Assembly: GCA_016839785.1 (NCBI GenBank)
Contig: JAEOTQ010000108.1
Span: 1 to 19,791 of the forward strand
From: Candidatus Hodarchaeota archaeon
GTDB lineage: Archaea > Asgardarchaeota > Heimdallarchaeia > Hodarchaeales > Hodarchaeaceae
DNA length: 19,791 nt
Direction: 5' to 3'
Below are positions 1 through 18,748 of the stretch, piece by piece. The notes beneath the pieces were generated by a model that was not told where the DNA came from, made no database searches, and was given only the letters and a program-made list of their open reading frames with translations. Position numbers and translations under genes: made by a program. Numbering within the stretch: the first letter of the stretch is position 1; each line of letters starts with the position of its first letter.

Positions 1-69
1 CGGAAAGGAACTTGGAAAGATGCTTGTCGTAGAGAAGGACGTAGAAAATTGACTATCAAGAAGGTATAG
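1..69 (+). CDS. possible 3' end of an upstream gene (partial; RKGTWKDACRREGRRKLTIKKV*)
   Basis: Frame 1 is open from base 1 to TAG at 67-69 and converges on the rubrerythrin stop. Too short to identify. Confidence 0.35.
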   Translation, partial: RKGTWKDACRREGRRKLTIKKV

Positions 70-106
70 AAATAAAGAAAAAATAGTTAGTAGAGACAGT
101 CAACTC

Positions 107-610
107 TTACTCTACTTCAAAGAATTTGTCGTGAACTGCACCGCAAATAGGACAGACTTCAGGAGCCTCACCTTCAACGGTGTATCCACAGACTTCACAA
201 ACAAACATCTTGACTGCATCTAAGTCTTTTCCTGCCTCTGCAGCTTTTAAGGCTTTAGAGTACAGTTCATGATGTACTTTTTCAACTTGATTGGCTAAGT
301 CAAAACTTCGCTCGGCACGTTTATTGCCTTCTTTCTTCGCCTCTTCAAGAAATTCAGGATACATTGCTGTGAATTCATAATGTTCGCCTGACATTGCGTC
401 CTTAACATTTTCCACTGTGGATTTGACACCACCTACCGTACGAAAATGTGCATGCGCATGAATAGTTTCAGCAGCTGCAGCCGCTCGAAAAACTCGTCCG
501 ATTTGGGGAAGTCCATCTTTGTCTGCTTGTTTAGCATAAGCTAAATACTTACGATTGGCTTGGCTCTCGCCCGTGAAAGCTATCATAAGGTTTTTTTCAC
601 TATTACCCAT
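107..610 (-). CDS. rbr: rubrerythrin (ferritin-like di-iron domain + C-terminal rubredoxin domain)
   Basis: GESQA..Y, ETIH, GEHYE..MYP and EKVH di-iron motifs; CEVCG...CPICG rubredoxin pair. ATG at 610 lies 9 nt after AGGAG (the track start at 619 is TTG). Confidence 0.95.
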   Translation of the reverse strand: MGNSEKNLMIAFTGESQANRKYLAYAKQADKDGLPQIGRVFRAAAAAETIHAHAHFRTVGGVKSTVENVKDAMSGEHYEFTAMYPEFLEEAKKEGNKRAERSFDLANQVEKVHHELYSKALKAAEAGKDLDAVKMFVCEVCGYTVEGEAPEVCPICGAVHDKFFEVE

Positions 611-655
611 GACTATCAACTCCTATTAGTGAATGGACAAGGCTGATAAGGGGGG

Positions 656-661
656 TATAAA
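656..661 (-). promoter_or_regulatory. putative TATA box of rubrerythrin
   Basis: TTTATA on the minus strand, about 45 nt upstream of the ATG. Confidence 0.45.
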
Positions 662-787
662 TCTTATGGTTCGTCTGTCAATCTTGTTAATTCGAAGACA
701 GGAGATGCTTTAAATAGAGGATTCGACGATTATCGTAGAAGTTTTTTGAATTCTTAACGCAAAAAGTAATTCTACCATATCGTTGAG

Positions 788-803
788 GAAAAAATATATT
801 ATA
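788..803 (+). promoter_or_regulatory. putative BRE/TATA of the sdhA-sdhB-fumC cluster
   Basis: GAAAAAATATATTATA: purine run followed by a TATA-like box, about 40-55 nt upstream of the candidate starts. Confidence 0.45.
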
Positions 804-843
804 GGTGAGAATAATAGAAGAGTCTATTAAGAATAAGTAGAAT

Positions 844-2586
844 TTGGAAGGATATTCTTTGAGTGTAAAAGAATTTGATGTTTTAATTGTCGGTGGAGGA
901 CTGAGTGGGTTACGTGCAGGGTTAGAGCTTTCTAAAAAGTGGAAAGTAGCACTGGTAAGTAAAGTGGTACCAATACGCTCACATTCAGGAGCCGCACAAG
1001 GAGGTATTAATGCTGCTCTGGGTAATCATCCCGAGGGAAAGGAGGATACCCCTGAAAAGCACGCATTTGACACAATCAAGGGTAGTGATTATCTTGCGGA
1101 TCAAGATGTTGTTATGTTCATGACAAAAGAGGCACCCAAAATAGTGGTGGAATTTGAAAGCATGGGTGCCCCTTTTTCACGGTTCGAGAATGGAAAAATT
1201 GCACAGCGACCATTCGGTGGGGCAGGGTCACCTAGAACCTGTTATGCTGCAGATCGAACTGGACACGCATTACTCCACACGCTATATGAACAGTGTATTC
1301 GCCAAGGAGTCGATTTCTATGACGAATTTTTCTTGATTGATCTGATTTCTGTGTATAACACAGTGACTGGTGCACTTACTCTCGATTTAACAACTGGAGA
1401 GTTGGTTACATTCCGTACTCCGTATGTCATACTAGCCACAGGTGGATTTGGACGAATTTTTACTGCAAGTACTAATGCAATTATTTGTACTGGTGATGGT
1501 GTAGGTGCTGCATTTCGAGTGGGTGTCCCCATGCAGGATTGTGAATTTATCCAGTTTCATCCCACTTGTCTGTATGGTTCAGGAATTTTAATGAGCGAAG
1601 GGGCTCGTGGAGAAGGAGGATTACTCTTTAACAACAAAAAGGAGCGTTTTATGTTAAAAATCGCACCAGAAGCCAAGGAATTAGCACCCCGCGATATTAT
1701 CGCACGGGCGATAACCACTGAAATTAATGAGGGACGCGGATTTGAAGATGCGTATGTTCATTTAGACTTAACTCATCTTGGAGCAGAACGTATAAAAGAA
1801 CGATTACCGGGAATTCGTGACATTGCCATTGATTTTGCTGGTGTAGATTCCATAGAAAAACCTATTCCTGTACATGCAGGTCATCATTATAGTATGGGTG
1901 GAATTGGGACTAAATTTGATGGTGATTATTGCGAAACCTCCCTCGATGGTTTATGGGCTGTTGGTGAGAATGCGGCAGTCTCTGTTCATGGTGCCAATCG
2001 GTTAGGAGGAAATAGTTTACTTGAAACGGCAGTGTTTGGAAGGTATATAGGAAGAAAAATGTTGGAAAGAGGTTTACCATCTCGCCCATCTTTAGATAAG
2101 ATTATTGCAGCCGAAAAAGCCACTCTGGATAATATTGAAGGATTATTTAAGCGATGGGAGAGTAATTCTGGTAAAAAGGCGGTAGAAATCCGTGAAGCGA
2201 TGGGGGAAACTCTAAGTCGTAATGTGTTTGTGTTTCGGAAAGAGTCGGAGTTACAACAAGCTGTCAACGATATGAAAAATTTTCAGAAAGACTTTGAGAA
2301 TGTGTCCCTGACAAATATCTCTTCTCCCGCCGCTAGGAAGTTTAACTACGGATTAGTGCGAACCTTGGAGCTAAGAAATATGATTGACATAGCAGAAGTA
2401 ACCGCGTTTGCCTCACTATGGAGAAAAGAAAGTCGTGGAGCACATTACCGTACAGATTATCCAACACGTAAGGACGAAGATTATCTGGTCCATTCAATGG
2501 TTATCAGAAATAATTCAGGTGATCTTGAAATGCATACGAAACCAGTCAAACTGGGAATATTTGAACCTAAACCGAGGGAATACTAA
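844..2586 (+). CDS. sdhA: succinate dehydrogenase/fumarate reductase flavoprotein subunit
   Basis: GGGLSG Rossmann motif, RSHSGAAQGGI (covalent FAD His), QFHPT, SEGARGEGG, ELAPRD, HYSMGG, HGANRLGGNSL, ESRGAHYR. The true start may be TTG at 859 after GGAAGGA. Catalytic direction (Sdh vs Frd) cannot be determined here. Confidence 0.95.
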   Translation: MEGYSLSVKEFDVLIVGGGLSGLRAGLELSKKWKVALVSKVVPIRSHSGAAQGGINAALGNHPEGKEDTPEKHAFDTIKGSDYLADQDVVMFMTKEAPKIVVEFESMGAPFSRFENGKIAQRPFGGAGSPRTCYAADRTGHALLHTLYEQCIRQGVDFYDEFFLIDLISVYNTVTGALTLDLTTGELVTFRTPYVILATGGFGRIFTASTNAIICTGDGVGAAFRVGVPMQDCEFIQFHPTCLYGSGILMSEGARGEGGLLFNNKKERFMLKIAPEAKELAPRDIIARAITTEINEGRGFEDAYVHLDLTHLGAERIKERLPGIRDIAIDFAGVDSIEKPIPVHAGHHYSMGGIGTKFDGDYCETSLDGLWAVGENAAVSVHGANRLGGNSLLETAVFGRYIGRKMLERGLPSRPSLDKIIAAEKATLDNIEGLFKRWESNSGKKAVEIREAMGETLSRNVFVFRKESELQQAVNDMKNFQKDFENVSLTNISSPAARKFNYGLVRTLELRNMIDIAEVTAFASLWRKESRGAHYRTDYPTRKDEDYLVHSMVIRNNSGDLEMHTKPVKLGIFEPKPREY

Positions 2587-2588
2587 AG

Positions 2589-3362
2589 GTGAAGAAAATG
2601 GTAGAAAAACAGAAATTTTTGGTTTATAGAAAAAACCCTGGAGAAACCCCCCGTTATGAACGATACACTGTTCCATTAAAACCTGGAATGAGTGTATTAG
2701 AGGCATTATTTTACATACAAGATCATTTAGATTCTAGCTTTGCTTTTCGTTATGCCTGTCGTGGAGCGATCTGTGGTTCATGTGGTATCACCATTGATAA
2801 ATTCCCCCAATTGGCGTGTAGGACACAAGTTACTGCTGTTAAGTCAACAAAGAAACCTCTCAAACTTCCTGAGCTAACTTTTGGAGAGGTACCGAATGAT
2901 TGGAATCAAGAAACGGAAATTCTTATTGAACCTTTACCCAACATGGAACCAATTAAAGATCTAGTAGTGGAAATGGAACCTTTTTGGAAATTTTATGAGG
3001 AAGTTAAACCTTATTTTGTACGGGAGTACATTGATGTTCAACCTGAATCATTACAATCCTTTGAAGATGCACGATCTATCGAACATCTTGTATACTGTAT
3101 TTTATGTGGGATATGCTGGACTTGCCCTGTAAATGCCACTAATTCCAATTATCTCGGACCTACAGCGCTAGCCAAAGCATATCGTTTTATGGCTGATACT
3201 CGTGTAGATGACTCTCATCGAAGCGTAATTGCTGGTCGAGTCTCGAAAGAGGATGGGGTACCTGCCTGTGAAAAACACTTTGTATGTAACCGAGTTTGCC
3301 CCAAAGGAGTCAAACCTGGAACAGCAATTCAAAACACTCGGAAAGAATATTTGACCCCATGA
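2589..3362 (+). CDS. sdhB: succinate dehydrogenase/fumarate reductase iron-sulfur subunit
   Basis: CRGAICGSC...LAC ([2Fe-2S]), CILCGICWTCP, CEKHFVCNRVCP ([3Fe-4S]-type), EPLP...IKDLVV, YLGP. Directly follows sdhA; ATG at 2598 is an alternative start. Confidence 0.93.
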   Translation: MKKMVEKQKFLVYRKNPGETPRYERYTVPLKPGMSVLEALFYIQDHLDSSFAFRYACRGAICGSCGITIDKFPQLACRTQVTAVKSTKKPLKLPELTFGEVPNDWNQETEILIEPLPNMEPIKDLVVEMEPFWKFYEEVKPYFVREYIDVQPESLQSFEDARSIEHLVYCILCGICWTCPVNATNSNYLGPTALAKAYRFMADTRVDDSHRSVIAGRVSKEDGVPACEKHFVCNRVCPKGVKPGTAIQNTRKEYLTP

Positions 3363-3414
3363 ATTTACTGCCTATAGGTTCGATCTTTCTATGATAAAAA
3401 GATGAGGAAAAGTA

Positions 3415-4818
3415 ATGACGACCTTTCGTGTTGAAAAGGACAGTTTAGGAGAAGTTAAAGTTCCCGCAGAAAGCTATTGGGGAGCCCAAACTCAGCGTTC
3501 TATCGAGAATTTTCCTTTTGAATCTTCAGCTCACCTTCGCTTTCCCCGGGAATTTATTCGGGCATTGGGAATTGTTAAGAAGGCATGTGCAGAAGTAAAT
3601 GGGGACCTCGGTTTATTGTCTCTTGAAATTGCTCAAGCTATAAGTAAAGCGGCCCAAGAAGTAATTAATGGGAAATTTGCTAACCAATTTCCCCTACTAA
3701 TCTGGCAAACTGGATCTGGCACTCAAACAAATATGAATATGAATGAAGTACTTGCAAATCGTGCCAATGAGATCCTCGGAGGTAAACTAGGATCATATGC
3801 TCCTATTCACCCCAATGATCATGTTAATAGGTCTCAATCTTCAAATGATGTGATTCCTACTGCCATGCATGTATCTGCAGTTTCATCAATCTTTCATTCT
3901 CTTCTTCCTTCCCTAAAAATTCTGAAAAATACTCTCAAAGAAAAGGAGGACAAGTATGCAGATATTATTAAGACAGGAAGGACGCATCTCCAAGATGCAA
4001 CCCCGATATCTTATGGACAGGTCTTCTCTGGGTATGTTACTCAGATCGCTAAGGGTATAAAACGAGTTGAAAAATCTCTTTCCAATCTATATGAACTAGC
4101 GCTGGGAGGAACAGCTGTCGGTACTGGACTAAATACACACCCTGAATTTGCTGAGAGCACTGCGCACATTATATCGAAAAATACGAATATCGCGTTTATT
4201 ACCGGTCACAATAAGTTTGAAGGTATAGCTGCCCATGACGCGATTGTAGAAATGAGTGGTACACTGCGTGTAATTGCCGTGAGTATGATGAAAATTGCCA
4301 ATGACATACGTTGGTTAGGGTCTGGCCCTAGAAATGGTTTAGGAGAACTTATATTACCAATGAATGAACCTGGATCATCTATTATGCCTGGAAAGATCAA
4401 TCCTACTCAAGTTGAATCTGTTACTCAAGTTGTCGCCCAAATCATTGGAAACGATGTAGCCATTGGCTTTGCTGGTTCCCAAGGCAATTTTGAGCTCAAT
4501 GTGTTTAAACCCATCATGATCTACAATCTATTGCAATCAATCCAATTGTTAGCTGATGTTTCACGAAATTTTGCTCAAAAATGCATTGCAGGTCTTACTG
4601 TAGATACAGCAAGAGTCAAAAGCGATTTGGAACAAAATCTAATGCTAGTGACTAGTCTCACTCCCTTAATTGGCTATGAAAAAGCAGCTGCAGTGGCCCA
4701 TGAAGCGTATAGCACCCAAAAGACATTAAAAGAAGTTCTGCTTGCCCAAAAGCTTCTATCCGAGTCAGAAATCGATAAAGCCCTCGATCCTTCGAAGATG
4801 ATTTCACCAAGGAAGTGA
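3415..4818 (+). CDS. fumC: class II fumarate hydratase
   Basis: FRVEKDSLG, YWGAQTQRS, WQTGSGTQTNMN, HPNDHVN.SQSSND, GRTHLQDATP and the GSSIMPGKINP signature. GAGGA RBS. Confidence 0.96.
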   Translation: MTTFRVEKDSLGEVKVPAESYWGAQTQRSIENFPFESSAHLRFPREFIRALGIVKKACAEVNGDLGLLSLEIAQAISKAAQEVINGKFANQFPLLIWQTGSGTQTNMNMNEVLANRANEILGGKLGSYAPIHPNDHVNRSQSSNDVIPTAMHVSAVSSIFHSLLPSLKILKNTLKEKEDKYADIIKTGRTHLQDATPISYGQVFSGYVTQIAKGIKRVEKSLSNLYELALGGTAVGTGLNTHPEFAESTAHIISKNTNIAFITGHNKFEGIAAHDAIVEMSGTLRVIAVSMMKIANDIRWLGSGPRNGLGELILPMNEPGSSIMPGKINPTQVESVTQVVAQIIGNDVAIGFAGSQGNFELNVFKPIMIYNLLQSIQLLADVSRNFAQKCIAGLTVDTARVKSDLEQNLMLVTSLTPLIGYEKAAAVAHEAYSTQKTLKEVLLAQKLLSESEIDKALDPSKMISPRK

Positions 4819-4836
4819 CTCAATCACAAATATTGA

Positions 4837-5283
4837 TCACATCGTAGATCTTTCTTCTAAAAGGGTTTTCAATCCATTGAGGACGACATCCCAACTTTCC
4901 GATGTATGATTGAATTGCTCTTCTTTTTGGAACTCACCTTGTGAAACATGTAACTGGGTTCCAACCTCCGTTTTACTTAACTGGTATATCACTTGTGTAT
5001 GCCTAGAGACATCATCCTCAAATTCAGGTGCAAAACATGTATATTCCAAGAGTTCTCCTTTTTTAATTCTTACAATTAGTCCTTTAACTGGAATGACTTC
5101 TTTCCCCTCTGAAATCATTTTAAATATTATGGGATCGCCAGTATTCCAGTCGGAAATTGCTTCACAGTTGAGAAAATACTGCTTGGTAATTTTGGGATCG
5201 GTCAGTGCATTCCAAACCGTTGAAATATCAGCTTTAATAGTAATATCTTTTTCTACAGTTAATTCTTTACTCAACTTGCCCAC
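4837..5283 (-). CDS. SRPBCC / activator of Hsp90 ATPase 1-like (AHSA1) domain protein
   Basis: ITIKA...VWNALTDP..TKQY, SDW..G, GT.L.V.Q and W..VL.GLK.LLE pattern typical of CalC/Aha1-like proteins. Confidence 0.85.
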   Translation of the reverse strand: MGKLSKELTVEKDITIKADISTVWNALTDPKITKQYFLNCEAISDWNTGDPIIFKMISEGKEVIPVKGLIVRIKKGELLEYTCFAPEFEDDVSRHTQVIYQLSKTEVGTQLHVSQGEFQKEEQFNHTSESWDVVLNGLKTLLEERSTM

Positions 5284-5484
5284 TTCGTGTAAATAAATCG
5301 GTTTAGAGGTATTTTCACTCAGTTTACTAATAAATTTATTATCTGTTTGACGTAGACTTTGATGGAAAAATGACTGAACTGGAAAAAGGCAAAAGGTCCC
5401 TAGTTTCCTTTTACCTAGTCTGATTTCTCATTGGTAATTGTAAACATTTTTCACATATGAAAATAATATAATGTTAATCGGGTC

Positions 5485-6054
5485 GTGTTTGTTGAATTGC
5501 TGAAGGTGCTTTATTCGAGTGGAAGACGGATAATCATTACGGCAAGTTTGGTTCTTGTGGTAAGCCTGCTTCTTAGTATGATTCTTATTCAGGCGTGGTT
5601 TGATTCTGAGGTCAAAAAACAGCTGAATGCCACAGAAACAAGCATTAATTCCATAGAAGTCTTAGATATTAGCTATACAACAAAAAGCGCCAATTTGACC
5701 ATTAATGCATCCGTTTCCAATCCGCATGATATTGAAATAACGGTTGCAGAAACCAATTTCTCAATTGAATATCACGGAACGCGTATGGGAGTTGTCCGCA
5801 TGCCCAAAATCATTTTGGAATCGAATTTGGTCTCACTAGTGTTTAATACAACCTTCATTCTTGGAGGGATTTTACCGATTACTTATTCTTACTTTGCAAT
5901 AGATCTTTTTGCCGATGGAGAAGTATCAGTTAATATCACTGGCAGCTTGACCTTAAGCGCACCAGCATTATTTTTCACGGTTTACTCAACTACGAGTATT
6001 AACACGGAAATCGTGCTAACAACGGATCTTATTTTGTATTCAAGGATGATTTAA
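5485..6054 (+). CDS. membrane-anchored LEA type 2 (WHy) domain protein
   Basis: N-terminal hydrophobic helix, then a beta-rich domain with V.NPH.I.I.V....F.I.Y.G..MG (variant of the LEA_2 NPN motif). Confidence 0.7.
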   Translation: MFVELLKVLYSSGRRIIITASLVLVVSLLLSMILIQAWFDSEVKKQLNATETSINSIEVLDISYTTKSANLTINASVSNPHDIEITVAETNFSIEYHGTRMGVVRMPKIILESNLVSLVFNTTFILGGILPITYSYFAIDLFADGEVSVNITGSLTLSAPALFFTVYSTTSINTEIVLTTDLILYSRMI

Positions 6055-7013
6055 TTTCCAAAAACGCCTTTACTCAAATATTTCTGTCCTGAATCGGGAA
6101 AAACTGTAATAATAGAACCTTTTGCACTTGGTTCACTTTCTAGCCAAGTTAAAATACCGTGTAATTCCGCGCCTGAACTAGGACCAACAAGTCATGAAGA
6201 TTCCGATGCAATTCGACGAGTCATATTATTAGCATCTCTTTCCGTTATTTGAAAAATACCATCTAGCTCCTCACGTTGGAGAATCCCAGGTTTTTCTTTA
6301 ACCATCAATGTGTTTTTCAACCCAGGAATAGTACTAGTATTAGTGGGTTCAACTCCATAGACTTTGAGATTAAGATTTTGCTCTTTTAAGAATCTACTGA
6401 TCCCAATGATTGTACCCCCTGTTCCTAAACCTGCGAATAAGTAATCAACATTACCATGTGATTGTGCCCATATTTCCGGGCCAGTTGTACAATAATGGGT
6501 TTTCCAATTCGTGTCATTATTGAATTGATCTAGCATTACATACTCCTTGGAGAATTTCTGGGCCATCTCACGAGCTTTTCGGATTGCCCCATCCATACCC
6601 TCTTCTCCTGGAGTTGAGATAATCCTTGCACGATAGGAACGTAGGATATCTAACCGTTCTTGACTCATCGAGTCAGGAATGACAAGGGTAATATCAATAC
6701 CTAGAAGTCTGCCTACCCAAGCTAATCCAATTCCAGTATTGCCTGAAGTTGGTTCAATTACACATCTTCCATTCAGTTTTCCTGAAGATTTCAATTCTTC
6801 AAGCATATAAAGGGCAATACGATCTTTAACCGACCCTCCGAAGTTGAACATTTCTAGTTTTGCAAAGACCCGTACATTTGGAAATACTGCTAATTCTGAT
6901 AAATTCACCAGTTCAATAAGAGGGGTATTGCCAACATAATGAAATGCAGGAGGATGCATATGCTTCTCTAAAGTATAATGTGGAGGAGAATAACTCTCAA
7001 CAAAAATAGTCAC
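6051..7013 (-). pseudogene. cysM: cysteine synthase (CysM/CysK family, PLP-dependent) interrupted by one in-frame TGA at 6194-6192; pseudogene, sequencing error or readthrough
   Basis: VGNTPL, KLE.FN.GGSVKDR (PLP Lys), EPTSGNTGIGLA, QF.N..N...H..TTGPEIW, GLGTGGT, IPGLKN. After the TGA the same frame continues LVGPSSGAELHGILTWLESEPSAKGSIITVFPDSGQKYLSKGVFGN to TAA at 6053-6051, which is the canonical C-terminus. Confidence 0.85.
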
Positions 7014-7300
7014 CTTTCACCATTCTAACCTCAATGAAGACGTTTCACTGGTACTTCATTAAATACATGATTCGGAATCCGTAAAAGTGAAAATGTGTTA
7101 TTACAATGTAGTTACAGAAAGGATATACCAGTATTCATAATTCTTCTTCCGTTTGTCTATTATGCTTAATTTTCTTACGAGATACATCTCGTAGCAGTAA
7201 TATGCGAACGATAGCATATAACTTGAGATTGAGGCTAAAACTTTAATACGAACAAATTAACATCTCATGAAGCATTATTGACAACTATTTTCGTTGGGAA

Positions 7301-8428
7301 GTGACTAGGATTTCAGAGGATATTACCGAATTGAGTGAAGTCGATGTAAAACAAAGACGATTAAAATTACGAATACTAGGTTTAGGATTAATATTTATCT
7401 TCATTGCTTTCTTATTGTTACAATTTTTTGTTCAAATGCGTTATCCTCCCGAGTTAAAACTTCCTATAGAGTTGCAACCAGAGTGGACGAGTGATGTAAA
7501 TCGTGTCAAAACGATGCAATTTGTTGGAGATGTTGGAATAGTTATTGGGTGGATTATTCTTATTATTGGTGCACTGCTGGTTATTTATGGTTTCATTAAT
7601 ACGCTACTAGACCCACATTTAAGGGTACCTCGACGATTTGAACAAAATATTGTAGAAGCAATAAAATCTAATCTCTCTACGGATCGAAATTTCGTAATTT
7701 TGTTTGCAGGTTCAGTCATTTTTGGTATTATTTGGCTTTTTAATCTTTTAACCTATCCCAGCGATGGACCTCTTTATTTTTTGCGAGAACCAAATTTACA
7801 AGCCTATTATCCGACCGTCCCTGTTGAGGATCTTCCTGCGCTATCAACCTATGGAGGTTTTGCAGTGATTCAAGATACTGCAATCCTTTTATTGTTCATC
7901 TACGTAATATATGTAAGGTTACGACCTGGAAAGCAATTTGCTGAAGATTTTGTGTCATTTGCTTTAGATCGAACGGCTTTTCTTGTCCTCTTAATAAGTG
8001 TCAGTATTTTCCATGCAGTTGGTCACTTACCCTACGAGCTTTATGGTAAGGGCCAATGGGGTACAGGATTTACGGATATAAATTCATGGATTGCGTTTGA
8101 TAAGATAGCTCATGGTTTAACTAGTGCCGCAATTACGATGTTAATTGTTTATATTATTACTGATCAGTTTAAAAATTATGGGGCCGAGAGTACATCAGCT
8201 AAATTGTTTGGGATTGTGGTAGCAATTGCATTTATGATTAGTTTAGGACTAGCTTGGGAAATTTTTGAATGGATAACAAACGCTCTACTTAATCTTGGTC
8301 ATTTCGTCGATGAGATTTTGGATGCCCCGAAAGATCTTGTTTGGGATGCAATTGGTGCTGTTCTTGGTGCATGCTTGGCAATAATAGATATGTATCTTGA
8401 AAGATCAAAGGTTGATACAACCTCTTAA
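7301..8428 (+). CDS. polytopic membrane protein with C-terminal VanZ/DUF2238-like domain
   Basis: About 8-9 hydrophobic segments; FHAVG...FDKIAH...AWEIFE...DAPKDLVWDAIG motif set. Confidence 0.7.
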   Translation: MTRISEDITELSEVDVKQRRLKLRILGLGLIFIFIAFLLLQFFVQMRYPPELKLPIELQPEWTSDVNRVKTMQFVGDVGIVIGWIILIIGALLVIYGFINTLLDPHLRVPRRFEQNIVEAIKSNLSTDRNFVILFAGSVIFGIIWLFNLLTYPSDGPLYFLREPNLQAYYPTVPVEDLPALSTYGGFAVIQDTAILLLFIYVIYVRLRPGKQFAEDFVSFALDRTAFLVLLISVSIFHAVGHLPYELYGKGQWGTGFTDINSWIAFDKIAHGLTSAAITMLIVYIITDQFKNYGAESTSAKLFGIVVAIAFMISLGLAWEIFEWITNALLNLGHFVDEILDAPKDLVWDAIGAVLGACLAIIDMYLERSKVDTTS

Positions 8429-8593
8429 AATGGATCAATTCTTCATTTCTGGGTGGAAAATAAGTTTGAAACTAATTCGTCTTGATCTGTAGCTTGAAAA
8501 AGGCCTTTCGGAAACAGCATGTTGGTTATTATTTTTAGAAATAATGATCTGTTATTGCCCTAAGCAACTCAAAATAATCAACGTTGATCCCAG

Positions 8594-9802
8594 ATGAAAT
8601 CAGTAAGACCAGCGAATTTAAATATTCTCACACTAGTCTTTACTTATTTTCTTTGGGGATTTGCTAACTTTATTTTCGCTATCCAGATCCAACCTTTCAT
8701 CATAGACATATATGGAGAAAGTGAGCAAGTAGCACAGCTTTTAGGAGCAATACTCTCTATTGGGAGTTTTTTTGCTGTAATACCGCTCTTATTTAGTTAT
8801 TTGTCAGATACTCATGGAAGAAAGAAATTCATCATTTTGGGGGAGTTTTTAAGCTTTATTGGATTAATCGGTTTATCTTTGGAAAACACACATCTTGTAC
8901 TAATGATAATTAGCATCATAATATTTAATGTTGGACTTGGGGTTCAAGATTCCCCTCTAAATGCACTAGTATATGAATCAACTGCGGAAAAAAATCGTGG
9001 ACTAGTTTACGCTATAATATATAATTCAGGATCAATAGCAGGAATTATTTCTTCAATCTTAATAGAAAAAAATACCACAAGTGAGAATTACATAACTTTT
9101 TTTCAGATAGGGACTGTATCTTTACTGGTGATTCTTGTAGTAAATGTCTTTCTTCTATCTGATATTAAGCCAAATATCTCTAGGGTAAATTTTTCAATTA
9201 AAAACATATTTACAACCCCTATTTCTCGTTTCACTGTAATTGCTTTTGTTATAGATTCTTTTGCTTGGGGATTACCTCTTTCAATCGCAAACGGAATTTT
9301 TATCTTGCTTTTCGATGTCGATGTCGGCTTTATCGCTACATTAATTCTATATCAATCGATCTCAATTGTTCTACTCCAATATCCTGCAGGTTTCTTAGTT
9401 GATAGATTGGGTAAAATCTTCGGGCTTATTATAGGAGAAATAACAGGAATTATGTTTATCATTTGTGTCCAACTTGCACTGATGAATCCCTTTGATGCTA
9501 AGTTCTTATTGTTGGTAGGAGAGTTAATTCTAGGTTTAAGTATCGCTTTTTGGAGACCGGCCGTTACCATAAGCTTGATAGAAGTGGATCCCTCTATTCC
9601 CTCCACTAATTTCGGTATGATGTCTTTCTTTCAGCGACTTGGGTCGGTTCCCACAGCGGCGATAGGAGGGTTCCTTTTCACAATTATTGGATTTGGTCCG
9701 CTTCTCCTCGTAACATTCGTTGGGACTTTAATTGCTATGTTCTTATTTTACAGAATTAATCACCTTGAAACACTAAATAAAAGTAAATTATCAGAGATAT
9801 GA
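8594..9802 (+). CDS. MFS transporter
   Basis: 402 aa with about 12 TM segments; motif A variants LSDTHGRKK and GFLVDRLGK in the two halves; NRG in the loop after TM4. Confidence 0.9.
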   Translation: MKSVRPANLNILTLVFTYFLWGFANFIFAIQIQPFIIDIYGESEQVAQLLGAILSIGSFFAVIPLLFSYLSDTHGRKKFIILGEFLSFIGLIGLSLENTHLVLMIISIIIFNVGLGVQDSPLNALVYESTAEKNRGLVYAIIYNSGSIAGIISSILIEKNTTSENYITFFQIGTVSLLVILVVNVFLLSDIKPNISRVNFSIKNIFTTPISRFTVIAFVIDSFAWGLPLSIANGIFILLFDVDVGFIATLILYQSISIVLLQYPAGFLVDRLGKIFGLIIGEITGIMFIICVQLALMNPFDAKFLLLVGELILGLSIAFWRPAVTISLIEVDPSIPSTNFGMMSFFQRLGSVPTAAIGGFLFTIIGFGPLLLVTFVGTLIAMFLFYRINHLETLNKSKLSEI

Positions 9803-9908
9803 GTTTCTTATGAAATCTGCCAAGCTAAATAGATAAGAATTTTGCTAAGGAGAATTAGGTGTTCGGAAGCACAATGTTTAATTAATTCTGGTATAATTGT
9901 TCCTCAGT

Positions 9909-10364
9909 ATGGAAATTAACCAACAGAAAGTAACCACTGTTCTAGTGGAGATCTACCACTTTCTAAGAAATGATCGAATTTTTCTATTTGCTATCATCAT
10001 TGTAAGCATTCTTACATTGGGGAATTTCTTCAACAAGGAATTTCTCGATTTTGAACCATTACAGTATTCTTTATTCTCTTATGATAAAATCCTACATCTA
10101 CTTTCGTCAGTTATTATTCTGCGAGTACTTTATTGCCTAATCTTACGTATTGATAATACATATACAAAAGAGCATCCACGACTGATTGCTTCCTTGCTTA
10201 CAATGGCACTTTATGGCTTTATCTGGGAACCGTTTGAACTCATGACTTTTTTAATTCAAGAATCAAGGTCAGACCAATTTTGGGCTGAAGTTTTTGATGT
10301 TCCATTGGATTGGGTATATGATTTGGCTGGAATTTTGTTGAGTAATTTTTTAGGTTATGATTAA
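9909..10364 (+). CDS. small VanZ/DUF2238-like membrane protein
   Basis: About 4 TM segments; YDKILH...IWEPFE...DVPLDWVYDLAG. ATG at 9909 preferred over TTG at 9897. Confidence 0.7.
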   Translation: MEINQQKVTTVLVEIYHFLRNDRIFLFAIIIVSILTLGNFFNKEFLDFEPLQYSLFSYDKILHLLSSVIILRVLYCLILRIDNTYTKEHPRLIASLLTMALYGFIWEPFELMTFLIQESRSDQFWAEVFDVPLDWVYDLAGILLSNFLGYD

Positions 10365-10462
10365 TTCTTTACAAGTATAGGAAGTCAAACTATTGGAAAA
10401 AAAAGCAGAAGAAAATAAGAAGAAATTCGAGAAATTCGTAGATTAAATTCGAGGTGGAAAAG

Positions 10463-10942
10463 ATGAATAGAACAAAGAATACTGAATTTTACAAACAGCA
10501 GATTGAGCTCGAACAAGAGATAATTCAAGCTGCAGAGGCTTCTGTGAAACGAGTAAAGAATATACTTGTCAAAGAATTGATACTGGGTATAAGTCAGGAC
10601 AGTAAAAAACATACGTCAATCCTAAAGGGAATAAGTGCACTTCGAGAGAAAAGTACTGAAGGGATTCGATTAATCTCGGAAGGTGAACGAGAAGAGCTGA
10701 AACAAAGTATAGAGACGCATATTGAATTGGAACAAAAAGCTATCGATACTTATCGTCTCTTGCTGGGTCAGATCACAGATATGCGTGAAAAAATGTTATT
10801 GAAGACTATTCTTAAGGATGAGCTTCGACATCATGTGTTGTTAAAATGGTTATATGACGTGATAATAAAAGACCTAACGTTAACTGAAGATGACATCTTT
10901 GATATGACCTGGAAAGATGCAATCTGGCAAGACGGGACTTGA
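10463..10942 (+). CDS. ferritin-like (rubrerythrin-related) four-helix bundle protein
   Basis: Two helical repeats: IELE...DSKKH and HIELE..AI..Y...DELRHH. GAGGTG RBS 6 nt before ATG 10463. Confidence 0.8.
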   Translation: MNRTKNTEFYKQQIELEQEIIQAAEASVKRVKNILVKELILGISQDSKKHTSILKGISALREKSTEGIRLISEGEREELKQSIETHIELEQKAIDTYRLLLGQITDMREKMLLKTILKDELRHHVLLKWLYDVIIKDLTLTEDDIFDMTWKDAIWQDGT

Positions 10943-11038
10943 TTCCCCAAAATTCTCTACGTTATTCCAAATGAAATTGATTTGAAAATATTATTTGGTG
11001 TTTGTTTATCACCATTGGAATAATAGAAGAAGCTTATT

Positions 11039-11497
11039 ATGAATGAAATTCGAGATGTTCTACATATTGTCCCAATAATGCGATTTGTGGTGGAATCCAC
11101 AACCTGGATTTGGTTACTACTTATTGGAATAGAAACATTTGGTTTTCCCGTTATTAATTCTAAAAATCGTATGATTTTTGATTCATGGGTATTTTTAGGA
11201 TTCCTTTTGCTGAGTTTATTCTTATTAAGCCAGTTTAATTTTCCAGGTGACAAAAAACCTCATGGAAAAATGGTTGCAGGTTGGCAACGTATAACTGTGG
11301 AAATATTCTCTGCTACTCTTGGAATTTTTGCAGCATGGGTAATTTTTGGAGTTTTAGGTGCCATATTTCAGACTGCTGTATCTGTACTCTCATTTATCCT
11401 TGACAGAGAGAGATGGAAATGGTTTCTGGGTTACCGTGAGGGTCCACCAAATTTTGTACTTGCGTTGGGAAATTTTCCGCAAGAAAACTCAGAGTAA
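11039..11497 (+). CDS. membrane protein, YrdB/DUF2568-like
   Basis: About 4 TM segments; MRFVVE at the N-terminus and F.FPGD...V.GW.RI.VE internally resemble my recollection of the DUF2568 pattern (no search run). Confidence 0.55.
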   Translation: MNEIRDVLHIVPIMRFVVESTTWIWLLLIGIETFGFPVINSKNRMIFDSWVFLGFLLLSLFLLSQFNFPGDKKPHGKMVAGWQRITVEIFSATLGIFAAWVIFGVLGAIFQTAVSVLSFILDRERWKWFLGYREGPPNFVLALGNFPQENSE

Positions 11498-11519
11498 AAT
11501 TTGTTTACCGATGTGAACA

Positions 11520-11528
11520 TTTTTATAA
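11520..11528 (+). promoter_or_regulatory. putative TATA box of the first ABC operon
   Basis: GAACA followed by TTTTTATAA in the intergenic gap. Confidence 0.4.
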
Positions 11529-11637
11529 TAGGGTGATTCTTGAAGAATTATTATCGTACTTAATTTCTAACTTCACCTAATAACTTGAAATTTTGTCGAA
11601 CACAATTTACTACCTTGATGAGTTGACTAAGGTGGAA

Positions 11638-12582
11638 TTGAATAATAATTTCGTCATAGAATTAGAAAATTTGACCAAATATTATGGAAAATATCGTGGT
11701 ATTGAAAATTTGAGTCTTCAAATTAAAAAGGGGACAATTTATGGATTTTTAGGGCCCAACGGTGCAGGAAAGACTACCACTCTTCGTTGTTTACTTGGAA
11801 TCTTACATCCGAATAGTGGGAACATTTCGGTTTTTGGAGAAAAGATAGATCGTTGGGAGGCAAATATCGATTTAAAAGAGAAAATTGGCTATTTACCAGG
11901 AGAATTCGAACTATATCGTCATTTTACCGTAAAACAAATTCTAGATTATTTTGAATCACTACGAAAGCGACCTGCAGTATTAAGAGAAAAACTTATCACA
12001 GAGTTAGATTTAGATGAGTCCAGATCAGTTTCTCAGTTGAGTAAAGGAAATAAACAGAAGGTAGGATTAGTTCAGGCTCTGATGCATAATCCAGACTTAG
12101 TAATTCTAGATGAACCAACATCAGGCCTTGACCCGCTTATTCAACATCGATTATATTTAATTCTAAAAGAGCTCAGAAAGAGTGGGAGGACGATTTTCTT
12201 CAGTAGTCATAATTTATCAGAGGTTCAGAAAATTGCAGATGAAGTCGCAATAATTAAAGATGGTTTCTTGGTTAGTCATGATCGAATCGCCGATCTGAGT
12301 TTAAAAGTTCAACAAAAATTGAATATTACAACCAAGATTCCTATCCCGGCTACTATATGTGAATCACCCCTTATTAATCGATATGATCAAATTTATAGTA
12401 TGAATGGAGACCATCGTTATCAAATTTGGTTACACCGTCAGAATCAGAATCTGAGTAAAGTTTTTGGATTATTAGAAGAGTTCCAGCTTCTTGACGTGGC
12501 CCTTCCAGAGTCAAGTGTGGAGGAATACTTCATTCAGTATTATTCCGAAAATAAGGAGGAACATAGGGATGTGGATAAGTAG
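11638..12582 (+). CDS. ABC-2 type exporter ATP-binding protein
   Basis: Walker A GPNGAGKTT, signature variant LSKGNKQK, Walker B VILDEPTSGLDP, H-loop SSH. TTG at 11638 follows AAGGTGG (track start 11593). Confidence 0.93.
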   Translation: MNNNFVIELENLTKYYGKYRGIENLSLQIKKGTIYGFLGPNGAGKTTTLRCLLGILHPNSGNISVFGEKIDRWEANIDLKEKIGYLPGEFELYRHFTVKQILDYFESLRKRPAVLREKLITELDLDESRSVSQLSKGNKQKVGLVQALMHNPDLVILDEPTSGLDPLIQHRLYLILKELRKSGRTIFFSSHNLSEVQKIADEVAIIKDGFLVSHDRIADLSLKVQQKLNITTKIPIPATICESPLINRYDQIYSMNGDHRYQIWLHRQNQNLSKVFGLLEEFQLLDVALPESSVEEYFIQYYSENKEEHRDVDK

Positions 12583-14284
12583 CTTCAAACTAATATGGCG
12601 ACAAACCAAATATACTTATCTATTGCTATTGTTTATTGGGGTCGCAGGATCTTGGCTCTGTTATTTCACTTATCCAGGTGAAGAAGGAGTACGTGGATTT
12701 CTAGGTATGGAAGACACCCCTTTTATGGAAATCTTTTTTGGAGATATTCTTGATAGTTTAAATTCAGGTGATCCCGGCTTGTACCTCTATTTTGTTTTGC
12801 TCTATTTTATGGCCTATGCTGCCATTCTTTTTCCATTCATAGGATTATGGTTAGGCGGAGCAGGAATAAGTGAGGAGATCCAATCGTCAATGTCTGACAT
12901 CTTTTTTGCTAGTCCCCAGAAAAAACATAATTTACTCCATCGTCACTTGATTATTCATGCTATTCTTTTGACTCTGGTGGTTAGTGTTCTTTATATTCAG
13001 ATTCACATCTTCTTCGAATTAACAGGAAGCTCATTTAATTATTCCAGGATATTAAATGCTTTTGCCATCCTTTGGGTGTCTTCTATTTTCTTCTTTTCAA
13101 TTTCATTTTTAATTAGTACATTAACAGTACGGAATGACATCGGTCGTGGGGTGGCTGGTCTTGTATTATTAGGTGGTTATTTAATTCAGATGTTGATCAG
13201 TTTTAATCCCTCCTTGTCTGATCTGAAATATCTTAATCCGCTATTTTATACTGAAACGACTTCTTCTTTATTACTAGGAGATCCAATTCAGAGTGAGATT
13301 ATCATACCTTTAGTTATTAGTATAAGTTTTCTTGCGCTAACAGTGATTATCTTTAGAATAAGAGATCCTTTACCACTTGATCTTAATATAAAAAGAAGAT
13401 TTAGGAATAAAATCGGCAATGAAAATAAATTTAAATCTGAAACAAAAGATGGAATCATTTATACTCTTTTAAAACGAATTTCTCCTATAACCGCAGAACA
13501 ATGGGCCGCAGATAAATTAATATTTCTCATATTCTTTGGTCTTAGTATATTTTCGATTCTTTCAATTATTGGGGGATTTCCACAAGGAGAAGAAGGAATG
13601 AATCAGCTTGTAACCCTTTACCAAAATAATCCGATTGCGAAATCAATTATGCGCGATCATAATGATCTCATCACCTCGGATTCATTAGGTGCAATATATC
13701 CACAATTCTATGGATATTCGTGGATTTACTTCTTCTTCTTGGTTATAATTGCTGCAGGTCGTATAATAACGCGCGATCTTGATGGTAAAACTCTGGATTT
13801 AATCATGGGCTGTCCTATAAATTCCCAAAGAAAAATTTTTTATCGTGTGATAGCAATAATCTTGCAAGTAACTTTTATTGCAGCCTTTATGATAATCTCA
13901 TTGATTGGGGGTGAAATCATCTTAGGAATTCAATCTAAAATCCCTGAACAGCTTCTAGCGATTCTTGTGATTTCATTTGTATACCTTAGTCTTCTTACCT
14001 GTATGATTGCAATTGGAATTGCCATTCCTAAACCGCGTTTCCGAAAACCTGTAATTTATGGCTTTGCAGGAATAACAATTATCTTCTCGATACTTCCCTA
14101 TTTTAGTAAAGATCTGCTTCTCCTACAATACTTCTCCCTCTTATATTACTTAGACTTGGTAGGTTTAGTCGCCTATAGCTATTCTTTCGAATATCTTAAC
14201 CATTTATTTGTTCTAGTAGGAGTATTTGCAATTTCAGTGTTGTTTATTTGGAATAGGAGCGAGAAAAGTATTCACGCATGGTAA
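12569..14284 (+). CDS. ABC-2 type exporter permease with two fused permease domains
   Basis: About 12 TM segments in two repeats with coupling-helix motifs EEIQSSMSDIFFASP and RDLDGKTLDLIMGCP. ATG 12569 overlaps the end of the ATPase gene. Confidence 0.88.
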   Translation: MWISSFKLIWRQTKYTYLLLLFIGVAGSWLCYFTYPGEEGVRGFLGMEDTPFMEIFFGDILDSLNSGDPGLYLYFVLLYFMAYAAILFPFIGLWLGGAGISEEIQSSMSDIFFASPQKKHNLLHRHLIIHAILLTLVVSVLYIQIHIFFELTGSSFNYSRILNAFAILWVSSIFFFSISFLISTLTVRNDIGRGVAGLVLLGGYLIQMLISFNPSLSDLKYLNPLFYTETTSSLLLGDPIQSEIIIPLVISISFLALTVIIFRIRDPLPLDLNIKRRFRNKIGNENKFKSETKDGIIYTLLKRISPITAEQWAADKLIFLIFFGLSIFSILSIIGGFPQGEEGMNQLVTLYQNNPIAKSIMRDHNDLITSDSLGAIYPQFYGYSWIYFFFLVIIAAGRIITRDLDGKTLDLIMGCPINSQRKIFYRVIAIILQVTFIAAFMIISLIGGEIILGIQSKIPEQLLAILVISFVYLSLLTCMIAIGIAIPKPRFRKPVIYGFAGITIIFSILPYFSKDLLLLQYFSLLYYLDLVGLVAYSYSFEYLNHLFVLVGVFAISVLFIWNRSEKSIHAW

Positions 14285-14288
14285 TTGT

Positions 14289-14314
14289 GGGAATTCTTCG
14301 CTATGACAATTCCC
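14289..14314 (+). repeat. 7-bp inverted repeat just after the permease stop
   Basis: GGGAATT-N12-AATTCCC, with no U-tract after it. Confidence 0.4.
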
Positions 14315-14392
14315 TAAAATAACACTACGCTTAAACATGACAATAAAATAGATAGGGTATACTATTAGTAGAGTTTATATGTAGGTATTAAT

Positions 14393-14980
14393 ATGCAAAA
14401 GCATCTCCGGACGTATAACCATCCTTCTAAGTTCTTTAAAAAACGAACTTATACATTTAGAACTTTTATCACGGATATCATAAAAACGATGAAGCATCGA
14501 GAGTATATTCGTGATGCTCATCGATCTCAGCGTATTTCAAAGCAATTTAGTGAGCATATCATGTTGGTTGTGACTGGAATTAATGGTTGTATTTACTGTG
14601 AGTGGGGGCATACCAGTTTCGCTCTTCAAGCAGGAAGTACTTTGAAGGAAGTAAAAGCATTATTATCTCAACAATTCGGTGAGTTTCCCCCTGACGAGGA
14701 ATTAGCGTTAACTTTTGCCCAACATTATGCTGAATCTGCAGGACAGCCCTCTAAAGAAGCCATTCGAAGGTTACTGGAGCACTATGGTTTAGAGAAAGGA
14801 CGAGATATCTTAGTGTTTTGTGAAATGATAACACTCGGGAATTTGCTGGGTAATTCGATATCTGCGTTTTTTAGCAGATTAGACGGTATTCCTCCTGAAC
14901 ATGGATCCTTTCTCTTTGAATTAACAGTTTTTCTGTTCGGAGGATTCCTTTTCGATCGGTATATGAATCAAGGCAGATAA
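14393..14980 (+). CDS. AhpD-like / carboxymuconolactone decarboxylase family protein
   Basis: EHIMLVVTGINGCIYCEWGH matches the AhpD core E-x6-8-N-x-C-x-Y-C-x3-H; EELALTFAQHYAE in the second half. Confidence 0.85.
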   Translation: MQKHLRTYNHPSKFFKKRTYTFRTFITDIIKTMKHREYIRDAHRSQRISKQFSEHIMLVVTGINGCIYCEWGHTSFALQAGSTLKEVKALLSQQFGEFPPDEELALTFAQHYAESAGQPSKEAIRRLLEHYGLEKGRDILVFCEMITLGNLLGNSISAFFSRLDGIPPEHGSFLFELTVFLFGGFLFDRYMNQGR

Positions 14981-14984
14981 AATT

Positions 14985-15010
14985 AAAAAAAAAGGAAAAA
15001 GGGGAAAAGA
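14985..15010 (-). terminator. oligo-T tract, candidate archaeal-type terminator
   Basis: The minus strand reads TCTTTTCCCCTTTTTCCTTTTTTTTT immediately after the stop at 15013. Confidence 0.5.
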
Positions 15011-15012
15011 GA

Positions 15013-15312
15013 TTATTGCCTGAAATGGTTTATGACTTTCATGGGTTCAATCGTGATTAAAAAGACTAAATATGCAATCAATTGTAACCATAAATCCAGC
15101 CCACCGAAATCTTGGAACAAATCTGGATCAGTTAGTGAATTCAAAAAGACCACAAGCATTGCTAACGTCAGTAACAAGAAAGCTATGCCAATAACAAGAT
15201 CACTCTGTATTTTTTCCATTTTCACATATTTATAGAGGGCAAAAACCGCTATAACAACAGTTAATATAATGATCAACAATGGTATAAAATCAATTAATGG
15301 TAAATCTGCCAT
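15013..15312 (-). CDS. small hypothetical membrane protein (3 TM)
   Basis: Three hydrophobic helices. GAGGTG RBS upstream of ATG 15312 (MADLPL...). Confidence 0.7.
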   Translation of the reverse strand: MADLPLIDFIPLLIIILTVVIAVFALYKYVKMEKIQSDLVIGIAFLLLTLAMLVVFLNSLTDPDLFQDFGGLDLWLQLIAYLVFLITIEPMKVINHFRQ

Positions 15313-15513
15313 TTTATCTAGACACCTCAATTATATTCTAAAAGAGTCAGAAATGATCTGGTTTTTTTAAGAATAAATAATTTATCCCATTAACGGATGA
15401 TTAATGCACTTCTCCGATGATTCCGACATGTTCATTCTTATAAATAGTAAGAGAGAATGTAGATTTATTTCAATTTCTAATGTAAGAAGAATAACAATGA
15501 TGGGTAAAACAAA

Positions 15514-15882
15514 ATGACTAATGAACCAAAGATAGAATCCGTACGAAGTGTCCTTTTGACCAAAGCGGTACAGGTTCTCGTATTAGCATTTTTAAGTATA
15601 ATTCTATCTGTTTTTTTGGCATTATTATTGGGAGATGGATCTATTATCGAATCAACAATTTCTTTTATAGCAATTCTTGGATTTGTGGAAGTAGCAATAG
15701 GAGCGATATTTTCACTTGGCGTGAGTGAAGTGACATATGCATCCAGAGCTGGACTTAATCCTGTTTATGGAGAAACTATAACTAGAGATCGATTACGCTA
15801 CCATACTACTCAGATATTGAATGGCATTAATTTAATTTTTGCTGGTATCCTCCTTATGCTTCTAGGGACCTTTTTGAGTTGA
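15514..15882 (+). CDS. hypothetical membrane protein (3 TM)
   Basis: Two N-terminal helices, a polar loop and a C-terminal helix. ATG start; TTATAAAT at 15438-15445 upstream. Confidence 0.7.
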   Translation: MTNEPKIESVRSVLLTKAVQVLVLAFLSIILSVFLALLLGDGSIIESTISFIAILGFVEVAIGAIFSLGVSEVTYASRAGLNPVYGETITRDRLRYHTTQILNGINLIFAGILLMLLGTFLS

Positions 15883-15983
15883 AATTAAGCGGAGTTTCTT
15901 CCTCAATCGAAAACCATATATAAGATATTGGTAACTATATACCCAGAGTTTGGGAACATCAACTCTAGAAGGTTACGATCTGA

Positions 15984-16451
15984 GTGACTGAAAAAACACG
16001 AAACGTCCTTTCAAGTGACGAAACGGCAGTATTTACCGCAATGGATGCTGGTTTAAGTCCTAAGGAAATTAGCGTGAAACTATCTAAAGAAGACGGATAC
16101 ATTCGCAAAACACAGTCACGAATTCGTAAAAAAATTGACAAAGAACTTAAAAGGGCTGCAAATATGCTTCGCTTGCAATTTTCTGATAATGATATTATGC
16201 GAGATCAAGGAATTCTCAAATGTTTTGACTGGGTGAATAATACCTACGTTTTTCTGGTGTTTACTCCCATGATGGGTATTCTTGCATATTATACTCACGA
16301 TTGCTCAAACAATTGCGAAGATACATGTAAGGAAACACTTGATCTAATTCGTTCAGAGCGAGGAGTTCGAGTTAATGACAAGATTCGATCGTTACCAAAC
16401 AAAATTCAATACGAACATGTCTTTGAGGCAATACGTAAGCAAAAGGGTTAA
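15984..16451 (+). CDS. putative transcriptional regulator: N-terminal LuxR/sigma70-r4-like HTH + C-terminal His/Cys cluster
   Basis: LSSDETAVF.AM..GLSPKEIS.KL....YI.....RIRKKI fits GerE-type HTH spacing; HDCSNNCEDTC lies in the C-terminal half. Confidence 0.65.
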   Translation: MTEKTRNVLSSDETAVFTAMDAGLSPKEISVKLSKEDGYIRKTQSRIRKKIDKELKRAANMLRLQFSDNDIMRDQGILKCFDWVNNTYVFLVFTPMMGILAYYTHDCSNNCEDTCKETLDLIRSERGVRVNDKIRSLPNKIQYEHVFEAIRKQKG

Positions 16452-16454
16452 AAC

Positions 16455-17811: not shown

Positions 17812-17838
17812 TTTTCCTCCATTTTTTTTCTAATTTTC
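17812..17838 (+). terminator. oligo-T tract, candidate archaeal-type terminator
   Basis: TTTTCCTCCATTTTTTTTCTAATTTTC directly after the TAA of the second bPH_2 gene. Confidence 0.5.
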
Positions 17839-17852
17839 CGTGAAATAATTCC

Positions 17853-17860
17853 TTATATAA
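17853..17860 (+). promoter_or_regulatory. putative TATA box of the second ABC operon
   Basis: TTATATAA in the gap between the T-tract and the ATPase gene. Confidence 0.4.
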
Positions 17861-17930
17861 CTACTCTGGAAACTCTTTATCAATTAAAATTCAACGCCAC
17901 GTGTGTCGTGAAGGTGATAACAGCTTGGAC

Positions 17931-18743: not shown

Positions 18744-18748
18744 TAATC

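Follow-up and report, generated by a model that had tools for sequence, protein, structure and literature searches.

An in-frame stop codon inside an otherwise conserved gene may mark recoding, gene decay or an error of assembly, and a cysteine-synthase-family gene of a Candidatus Hodarchaeota archaeon raises the question of which of these has occurred. The gene lies in a stretch of 19,791 nucleotides (contig JAEOTQ010000108.1 of assembly GCA_016839785.1, positions 1–19,791; contig C62 in our set), hereafter called the window. Its source genome (G000) is a metagenome-assembled genome (MAG) of 4.04 Mb in 248 contigs, with 84.5% completeness, 3.4% contamination and a G+C content of 36%. The gene occupies 6051–7013 on the minus strand as a 320-codon frame running from a GTG at 7013 to a TAA at 6053–6051, and translation with TGA read as X revealed a TGA at 6194–6192 (codon 274) as its sole internal stop. 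We consider that this TGA is a recent and real nonsense allele, either a young pseudogene or a segregating null allele, produced by an unprogrammed TTA>TGA change and private to the population behind the assembly; we give this reading a probability of roughly 55%. The parts of the gene and its convergent neighbour are as follows.

6195–7013, minus strand: codons 1–273, with most of the PALP domain including the invariant lysine of the SVKDR motif (K63)
6192–6194, minus strand: in-frame TGA, codon 274; TTA (Leu) in orthologues
6054–6191, minus strand: the 46 codons after the TGA, encoding the conserved C-terminus (GPSSGA, FPDSGQKYLS), from sequence, Pfam and alignment
6051–6053, minus strand: ancestral TAA stop, at a position common to three orthologues
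6166–6958, minus strand: span of five other private replacements (K19M at 6958, P39S at 6899, P214L at 6373, L268I at 6212 and V283E at 6166)
5485–6054, plus strand: convergent LEA_2-like open reading frame (ORF) of 189 aa; its Pfam LEA_2 score of 18.5 bits is below the cut-off of 25.4

The changed base is window position 6193, T>G on the gene strand, and the TGA is directly followed by CTT (...RRIASESS-TGA-LVGPSSGA...TVFPDSGQKYLSKGVFGN-TAA). The 46 codons after it are open up to the TAA. Such an open stretch is not rare in itself, as at least 46 open codons follow the stop in 274 of the 2906 ORFs of at least 150 aa genome-wide. The protein with the TGA read as X gives one continuous match to Pfam PALP (PF00291) that spans the stop (residues 26–307, profile positions 4–295 of 295, 221.8 bits against a cut-off of 35), and the full-length domain is obtained only when the TGA is read through. 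An alignment of 27 sequences places 11 family-invariant residues in the tail (G277, S279, S280, G281, A282, G299, T303, D307, G309, Y312 and S314). Since both the domain match and the invariant residues continue past the TGA, we regard the frame as a single interrupted gene. A split gene with a separately translated tail was tried and rejected: the first in-frame ATG, GTG or TTG of the tail is a TTG 8 codons before its end, so that the tail has no usable start codon and is not translatable as a gene of its own. A tryptic peptide spanning or following residue 274 covers GSIITVFPDSGQK.

The TAA of the cysteine synthase (6051–6053) and that of the convergent ORF both lie within the TTAA at 6051–6054, giving a 4-nt overlap of the two frames. 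In the three close orthologues the gene, with its stop, is likewise 321 codons long and faces the same convergent neighbour, and for these reasons we take the TAA at 6051–6053 to be the ancestral gene end. The first-pass annotation of this DNA, made from the sequence alone, had described a single TGA followed by 46 open, conserved codons and an ancestral gene end within the TTAA overlap, and both descriptions held, the former in the sequence itself, the PALP match and the alignment, the latter through the orthologue length and the neighbour. It had also called the neighbour an LEA gene; the convergent ORF was found as described, and the LEA_2 identity fell short of the Pfam cut-off. Its statement that a 273-aa product should be inactive stood as far as the loss of invariant C-terminal residues is concerned. 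The length applies only when counted from the upstream GTG and not from the annotated ATG: the product in the public record (P0129) has 255 aa, from an ATG at codon 19 (6959–6957) to the TGA.

The family identity proposed in the same annotation was supported by Pfam, NCBIfam and alignment to the Escherichia coli structure 2bht. The best NCBIfam models were cysKM (TIGR01136; 302.6 bits, below its cut-off of 344.15), cysM (283.8, below 394.2) and cysK (264.8, below 350.95), which assigns the gene on its sequence to the cysteine synthase family but not to a named equivalog. K63, S90–G94 (TSGNTG) and G277/S279–A282 are invariant in the 27 sequences, and all of them align with E. coli CysM. We take the SVKDR lysine and the TSGNTG and GxSSG motifs to have their usual catalytic roles, with the SSG serine presumably lying at the ring of pyridoxal phosphate (PLP), as in the structural literature on CysK and CysM. 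Among solved structures, E. coli cysteine synthase B (2bht) comes closest; residues 26–319 of an intact relative with 98% identity (P0123) align with its residues 7–293 (E = 1.5e-62). Like the E. coli enzyme, P0123 keeps the SVKDR lysine, TSGNTG, the GxSSG loop and the DxGxRYLS tail, and relatives are publicly named "cysteine synthase B" or "PLP-dependent cysteine synthase family protein". Unlike CysM, the archaeal protein carries an N-terminal extension of about 25 residues, and its gene is interrupted in the studied assembly; unlike the curated cysKM and cysM families, it scores below the cut-offs, and its substrate may be O-acetylserine or O-phosphoserine, or its reaction may be CBS-like.

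Orthologues were searched for in the genome of the window and 40 relatives. Three same-genus orthologues (G002, G019 and G004, with 92%, 87% and 86% identity) have no internal stop, and the next best match had 46% identity. The alignment of the four genes is free of gaps; at codon 274, 3/3 orthologues have TTA (Leu) and only the studied assembly has TGA, so an uninterrupted frame for the whole enzyme is present in all three and lacking in this assembly. In a collection of 5.8 billion proteins, the best clusters were intact and Leu stood at the site in 9/9 covering members of the two nearest 90%-identity clusters. One of the nine, P0123/P0126, is 98% identical to the protein of the window and is encoded on a contig of 30,267 bases. 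Among 26 aligned homologues the column holds Leu in 23, Ile in 3 and Cys in none; these were picked from 120 listed matches as the near-full-length ones with about 50% identity or more, together with four that are further removed, leaving aside the partial matches P0012, P0013, P0022 and P0027 and most matches below 50%. A search of metagenome contigs with P0123 gave only more distant loci (85%, 76% and 43%). By sequence comparison, then, the TGA is private to the studied assembly. As a separate observation, a cysteine synthase homologue with 42% identity in the relative G031 (L016; G031:C98:97155–98060) contains a single in-frame TAG.

TGA is an ordinary stop in this genome and no code reassignment has taken place. 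It terminates 791 of the 2906 ORFs of at least 150 aa (27%) and 8 of the 20 other window ORFs checked, including sdhB and fumC; fumC ends at TGA with 467 aa, the same length as its 98.7% relative. The pattern that goes with reassignment, TGA rare as a terminator and frequent in frame, was therefore absent.

Components of selenocysteine insertion were sought as well. The best match to the selenocysteine tRNA (tRNA-Sec) model RF01852 reached 32.7 bits, below the cut-off of 47, in this 84.5% complete genome, and SepSecS (PF05889) had no match in it; across 41 related genomes, SepSecS gave only partial matches of at most 27 bits over about 100 of 389 profile positions, which are not SepSecS. SelD (TIGR00476; 58.8 against 125 bits) and PSTK (TIGR03574; 20.8 against 290.5 bits) were below cut-off, and SelB was not searched for. 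Rfam matches in 5300–7300, taken up to E = 10, included no family of the selenocysteine insertion sequence (SECIS); an Asgard-type SECIS may be unmodelled in Rfam. ARAGORN found 16 tRNAs in the 4.04 Mb, or 13 with introns allowed, and none for Trp, Cys or Sec; either the tRNA set is poorly recovered in the assembly or tRNAs were missed through archaeal introns. UGA followed by C is known as a leaky termination context from eukaryotic work. The 106 nt from the TGA onward have no notable fold (minimum free energy −17 kcal/mol against a shuffle mean of −19.9, z = +1.02, with 170 of 200 shuffles at least as stable), and the 3' side of the gene is occupied by the coding sequence of the convergent neighbour.

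These results bear on the recoding ideas of the first-pass annotation. Its supporting observations held: TGA is a real stop elsewhere (sdhB, fumC), the codon sits at a hydrophobic site and not at a Cys, and TTA to TGA is one substitution. The evidence also points to what it had called the simplest explanation, a recent nonsense mutation or a read error. Its further suggestion of conditional readthrough or selenocysteine insertion fared differently, with UGA found in 0/3 orthologues and 0/9 covering cluster members, one of them 98% identical. It had asked whether related genomes share the TGA and had named a sense codon in close relatives as the outcome that would speak against it; because all close relatives show a sense codon (TTA/Leu) at site 274, the recoding reading is refuted. 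Neither the stop conserved together with its downstream frame that typifies readthrough genes nor the UGA opposite Cys or Sec that typifies selenoproteins (0/26 here) was seen, and the tRNA-Sec, SelD, PSTK and SECIS that it had proposed to look for gave no match above cut-off. A programmed reading of the TGA, by readthrough or as selenocysteine, is not supported.

Whether the base at 6193 is real was addressed with assembled Logan contigs of four public runs, two of which (X2 and X4) had no cover of the site. The run with the largest share of the sampled words (0.79) was X1, probably the source sample, whose word depth over the gene is only about 2–5; its contigs equal the window with 0 differences over 6262–6926, a range that covers P214L and P39S. 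Run X3, from another study, contains a strain about 98–99% identical, with the ancestral bases at 6958 (K19), 6899 (P39) and 6373 (P214). The ancestral bases in X3, together with the agreement of X1 with the window at 6899 and 6373, mark P39S and P214L as real variants.

We also counted private changes, defined as amino-acid differences between G000 and the 98% relative that were polarised against outgroups. The counts per gene were as follows.

Cysteine synthase: 6 derived in G000 (K19M, P39S, P214L, L268I, L274stop and V283E), 1 derived in the relative
fumC: 4 derived in G000, 1 in the relative
sdhA: 0 derived in G000 (start codon set aside), 2 in the relative
152-aa ORF at 11039–11497: 3 derived in G000, 4 in the relative
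233-aa ORF at 16455–17156: 3 derived in G000, 2 in the relative

The neighbouring genes are thus balanced (10 against 9 private changes over 1431 residues), and all five replacements in the cysteine synthase other than the stop are at positions conserved in close relatives. At depth, the cysteine synthase is the most conserved of the compared genes (92% to G002 against 76–89% for the others). When the expectation was scaled by deep divergence in the four neighbour genes (10 per 246), 1.0 private change was expected and 6 were seen (Poisson p = 6e-4), and the branch of the relative fitted its own scaled expectation (1 seen, 0.9 expected). Private replacements that accumulate at conserved sites in this way are in keeping with relaxed constraint on this copy. 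A four-genome relative-rate count gave 23 synonymous and 18 replacement changes on the G000 branch and 26 and 8 on that of G002, and was not used as support; many of the G000-branch replacements fall in a variable loop (codons 225–246), are common to the 95–98% relatives and are older than the stop. A "stop" call at codon 225 in this count was discarded as an artefact of a multi-hit codon.

The rest of the genome was surveyed for similar cases. Of the 274 ORFs with at least 46 open codons after the stop (TAA 136, TGA 81 and TAG 57, close to overall stop usage), 151 had coding-like codon usage just downstream, and the other 150, apart from the cysteine synthase, were scanned with Pfam after reading through the stop as X. 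The coding-potential score served for choosing candidates; it makes no distinction between an interrupted gene and two same-frame genes in tandem, and nearly all of the 150 were such tandem genes. The count of interrupted genes is a lower bound, with 123 lower-scoring candidates, stops followed by fewer than 46 open codons and ORFs shorter than 150 aa lying outside the Pfam survey. A domain spanned the stop in 4 of the 150: UbiA (C125), Laminin_G_3 (C100), a DDE transposase (C145) and RNA polymerase A'/A'' (C148, TAA), the last of which we took to be the usual archaeal split between the A' and A'' genes and set aside. A further case, a repeat protein, was seen by eye. The additional interrupted genes are listed below.

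L108:1–882 (G000:C125:16625–17506), plus strand: UbiA prenyltransferase with TGA at codon 225; Pfam UbiA at 30–261 runs across the stop
L069:1–1335 (G000:C117:1819–3153), plus strand: repeat protein with TGA at codon 283, seen by eye; Trp in all its other repeats
L106:13385–14272 (part of G000:C100), minus strand: Laminin_G_3 (concanavalin-like) protein with TAG at codon 152; the domain at 98–252 spans the stop
L168:1–1293 (G000:C145:10841–12133), minus strand: DDE transposase (DDE_Tnp_1) with TAA at codon 252; the domain runs across the stop

The UbiA TGA faces TGG (Trp) in 5/5 orthologues, Trp is present in 4/4 covering members of its 90%-identity cluster (92–95% identical), and the public record holds a truncated 224-aa product. 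The TGA of the repeat protein faces an invariant Trp in 7/7 aligned repeats of two stop-free homologues (G003 and G012). The DDE transposase is probably a decayed insertion sequence. Including the cysteine synthase, the assembly has at least five interrupted genes (3 TGA, 1 TAG and 1 TAA), and TGA is not significantly over-represented among them (3/41 against 2/110, Fisher p = 0.12). In a genome as AT-rich as this one (36% GC), the G>A change that turns TGG into TGA is a common source of nonsense codons. Two side observations belong here: the UbiA orthologue of the relative G001 (L181; G001:C2:371142–371975) has a single in-frame TAG, and a Hel308-like helicase ORF (L067:1–2538; G000:C99:9980–12517, minus strand) is followed in frame, after its TAA, by the C-terminal third of GNAT_acetyltran (profile positions 178–242 of 243), which is probably a gene remnant.

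Under the nonsense-allele reading, a single-base change from TTA (Leu) to TGA would have arisen in the population behind the assembly, translation would end at codon 273, and the resulting cysteine synthase would lack its 47 C-terminal residues. The lost part would include the invariant G-x-SSGA loop and the D-x-G-x-x-Y-x-S segment, and the truncated enzyme would most likely be inactive, judging from these residues. The event would be recent, because the downstream 46 codons are open to the ancestral stop and hold only one private replacement (V283E). The at least four further interrupted genes, which make in-frame stops not unique in this assembly, support a real allele as well. That the base at 6193 is itself real and not an assembly error seems slightly better than an even bet. 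Several points weigh against it. The X1 contigs leave 6175–6261 uncovered, including the TGA; the X3 record that reaches the site (record 10, 6186–6447, with 4 differences of which only 6373 is itemised) has 6193 just 8 nt from its contig end, and the contigs, which neither confirm nor refute the base, could not separate the two possibilities. The excess of private changes is not significant per residue (6/320 against 10/1431, Fisher p = 0.09), nor is the 6:1 ratio alone (p = 0.125). Three of the six (6958, 6212 and 6193) fall in stretches without X1 contigs, transversions make up 4/6, which is unusual for natural substitutions, and random errors would give the same replacement-rich pattern. 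A true loss would, moreover, leave cysteine synthesis in G000 unexplained, in an assembly that is only 84.5% complete.

These points feed an assembly or sequencing artefact, to which we allow a substantial chance, short of even: the organism would have TTA, and the C at 6193 would come from one or two bad reads or a strain patchwork. This reading is favoured by the depth of about 2–5 in the best run, the contig breaks around the site and the location of half of the private changes (3/6) in the 18% of the gene lacking X1 cover. It is favoured as well by the state of the assembly (248 contigs, 84.5% completeness, 3.4% contamination), by at least four other genes whose in-frame stop disrupts a domain or is missing from relatives, and by the coexistence of close strains in related samples, as in X3. 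On the other hand, X1 agrees with the window without a difference over 6262–6926, including two private replacements, so the assembly is not generally error-ridden there; an error rate of six substitutions in 963 bases would be locally extreme, and the private changes of the neighbour genes are balanced. Readings in which the full enzyme is still made are far less probable. It is very unlikely that a near-cognate or suppressor tRNA reads the UGA, tolerably or conditionally, so that some full-length enzyme is made and TGA alleles are only weakly selected against. The intact downstream frame would suit this, as would the TGA in three of the five interrupted genes, two of them at an invariant Trp (TGG) where misreading by tRNA-Trp would restore the wild type; an extension of the idea, that leaky UGA termination by tRNA-Trp or another such tRNA lets private TGA alleles persist in the cysteine synthase, UbiA and the repeat protein, is just as doubtful. 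The stop is absent from all relatives compared, the 3' sequence forms no stable structure, the excess of TGA is not significant and has a simple source in the common G>A route, TGA ends 27% of long ORFs, and the cysteine synthase site is a Leu, which readthrough would not restore. The available text of a 2021 recoding review (PMC8211752) treats archaeal readthrough for selenocysteine and pyrrolysine alone, and its main text never uses the term "near-cognate".

That the gene works in its broken state is less credible still. A functional short enzyme of 273 (or 255) aa, or two pieces made separately and assembling, has nothing in its favour other than the two open pieces; an in-frame start appears in the tail only 8 codons from its end, and the tail carries the 11 family-invariant residues and is present in 26/26 aligned homologues, and among the 120 listed matches only a few partial ones are shorter. 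Least probable of all, to the point of being scarcely worth entertaining, is selenocysteine at the UGA, giving a selenoprotein form of cysteine synthase. The gene resembles archaeal selenoprotein genes in having an in-frame UGA followed by a conserved open frame, and differs from them in that tRNA-Sec, SepSecS, PSTK and SelD were not found above cut-off in the 84.5% complete genome, there was no SECIS match in Rfam, the homologous site, Leu or Ile in 26/26, has no Cys or Sec, the UGA is not conserved and the 3' side is the neighbour's coding sequence. Some Asgard clades do use selenocysteine: the available part of a 2024 survey (PMC11227280) lists it for Lokiarchaeia/Helarchaeales, Thorarchaeia and Sifarchaeia/Borrarchaeales, with other clades appearing to be without it, and mentions that a few genomes of Heimdallarchaeia/Hodarchaeales have Sec-containing homologues although most of the machinery is missing from them.

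The preferred reading, a private nonsense allele, places the gene among the ordinary nonsense pseudogenes and assembly stops of MAGs: the change is a single base, private, with an undecayed downstream frame and other interrupted genes alongside. It differs from ordinary in-frame stops in MAGs only in affecting the sole CysK/CysM-like copy found. The window otherwise contains sdhA, sdhB (2589–3362), the class II fumarase gene fumC (3415–4818), an AHSA1-family protein and a DUF2238-like membrane protein, in a gene order conserved in the three same-genus genomes. No second good CysK/CysM-like gene turned up in G000 beside the interrupted one; the other PALP paralogues are threonine/serine dehydratase-like proteins, threonine synthase and a 489-aa protein with a weak cysK match. 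CysE, SepRS and SepCysS gave nothing above cut-off in the assembly, of which about 15% is missing, so that cysteine auxotrophy is not shown. Elsewhere in G000 there are two MtmB-family (monomethylamine methyltransferase-like) genes (L115:1–1662, G000:C153:72590–74251; L126:1–1539, G000:C127:3543–5081), one of them directly 3' of a gene for a B12-binding corrinoid protein, which hints at methylated-amine or related methyl-transfer metabolism.

The finding as such is of little consequence: in a single MAG, a gene for a housekeeping-type enzyme carries either a private nonsense codon or an assembly error, and a private in-frame stop of this sort is ordinary. If the very unlikely leaky UGA termination were true, UGA capture in an Asgard archaeon would be at an early stage, advancing gene by gene, and the finding would bear on the onset of archaeal stop-codon capture only if all three private TGAs are real and peptides beyond them exist. 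In-frame stops in this assembly should not be taken as recoding without comparison to relatives. The annotated 255-aa "cysteine synthase" is probably non-functional, which would affect reconstructions of cysteine synthesis in this organism, and it should not be counted as intact.

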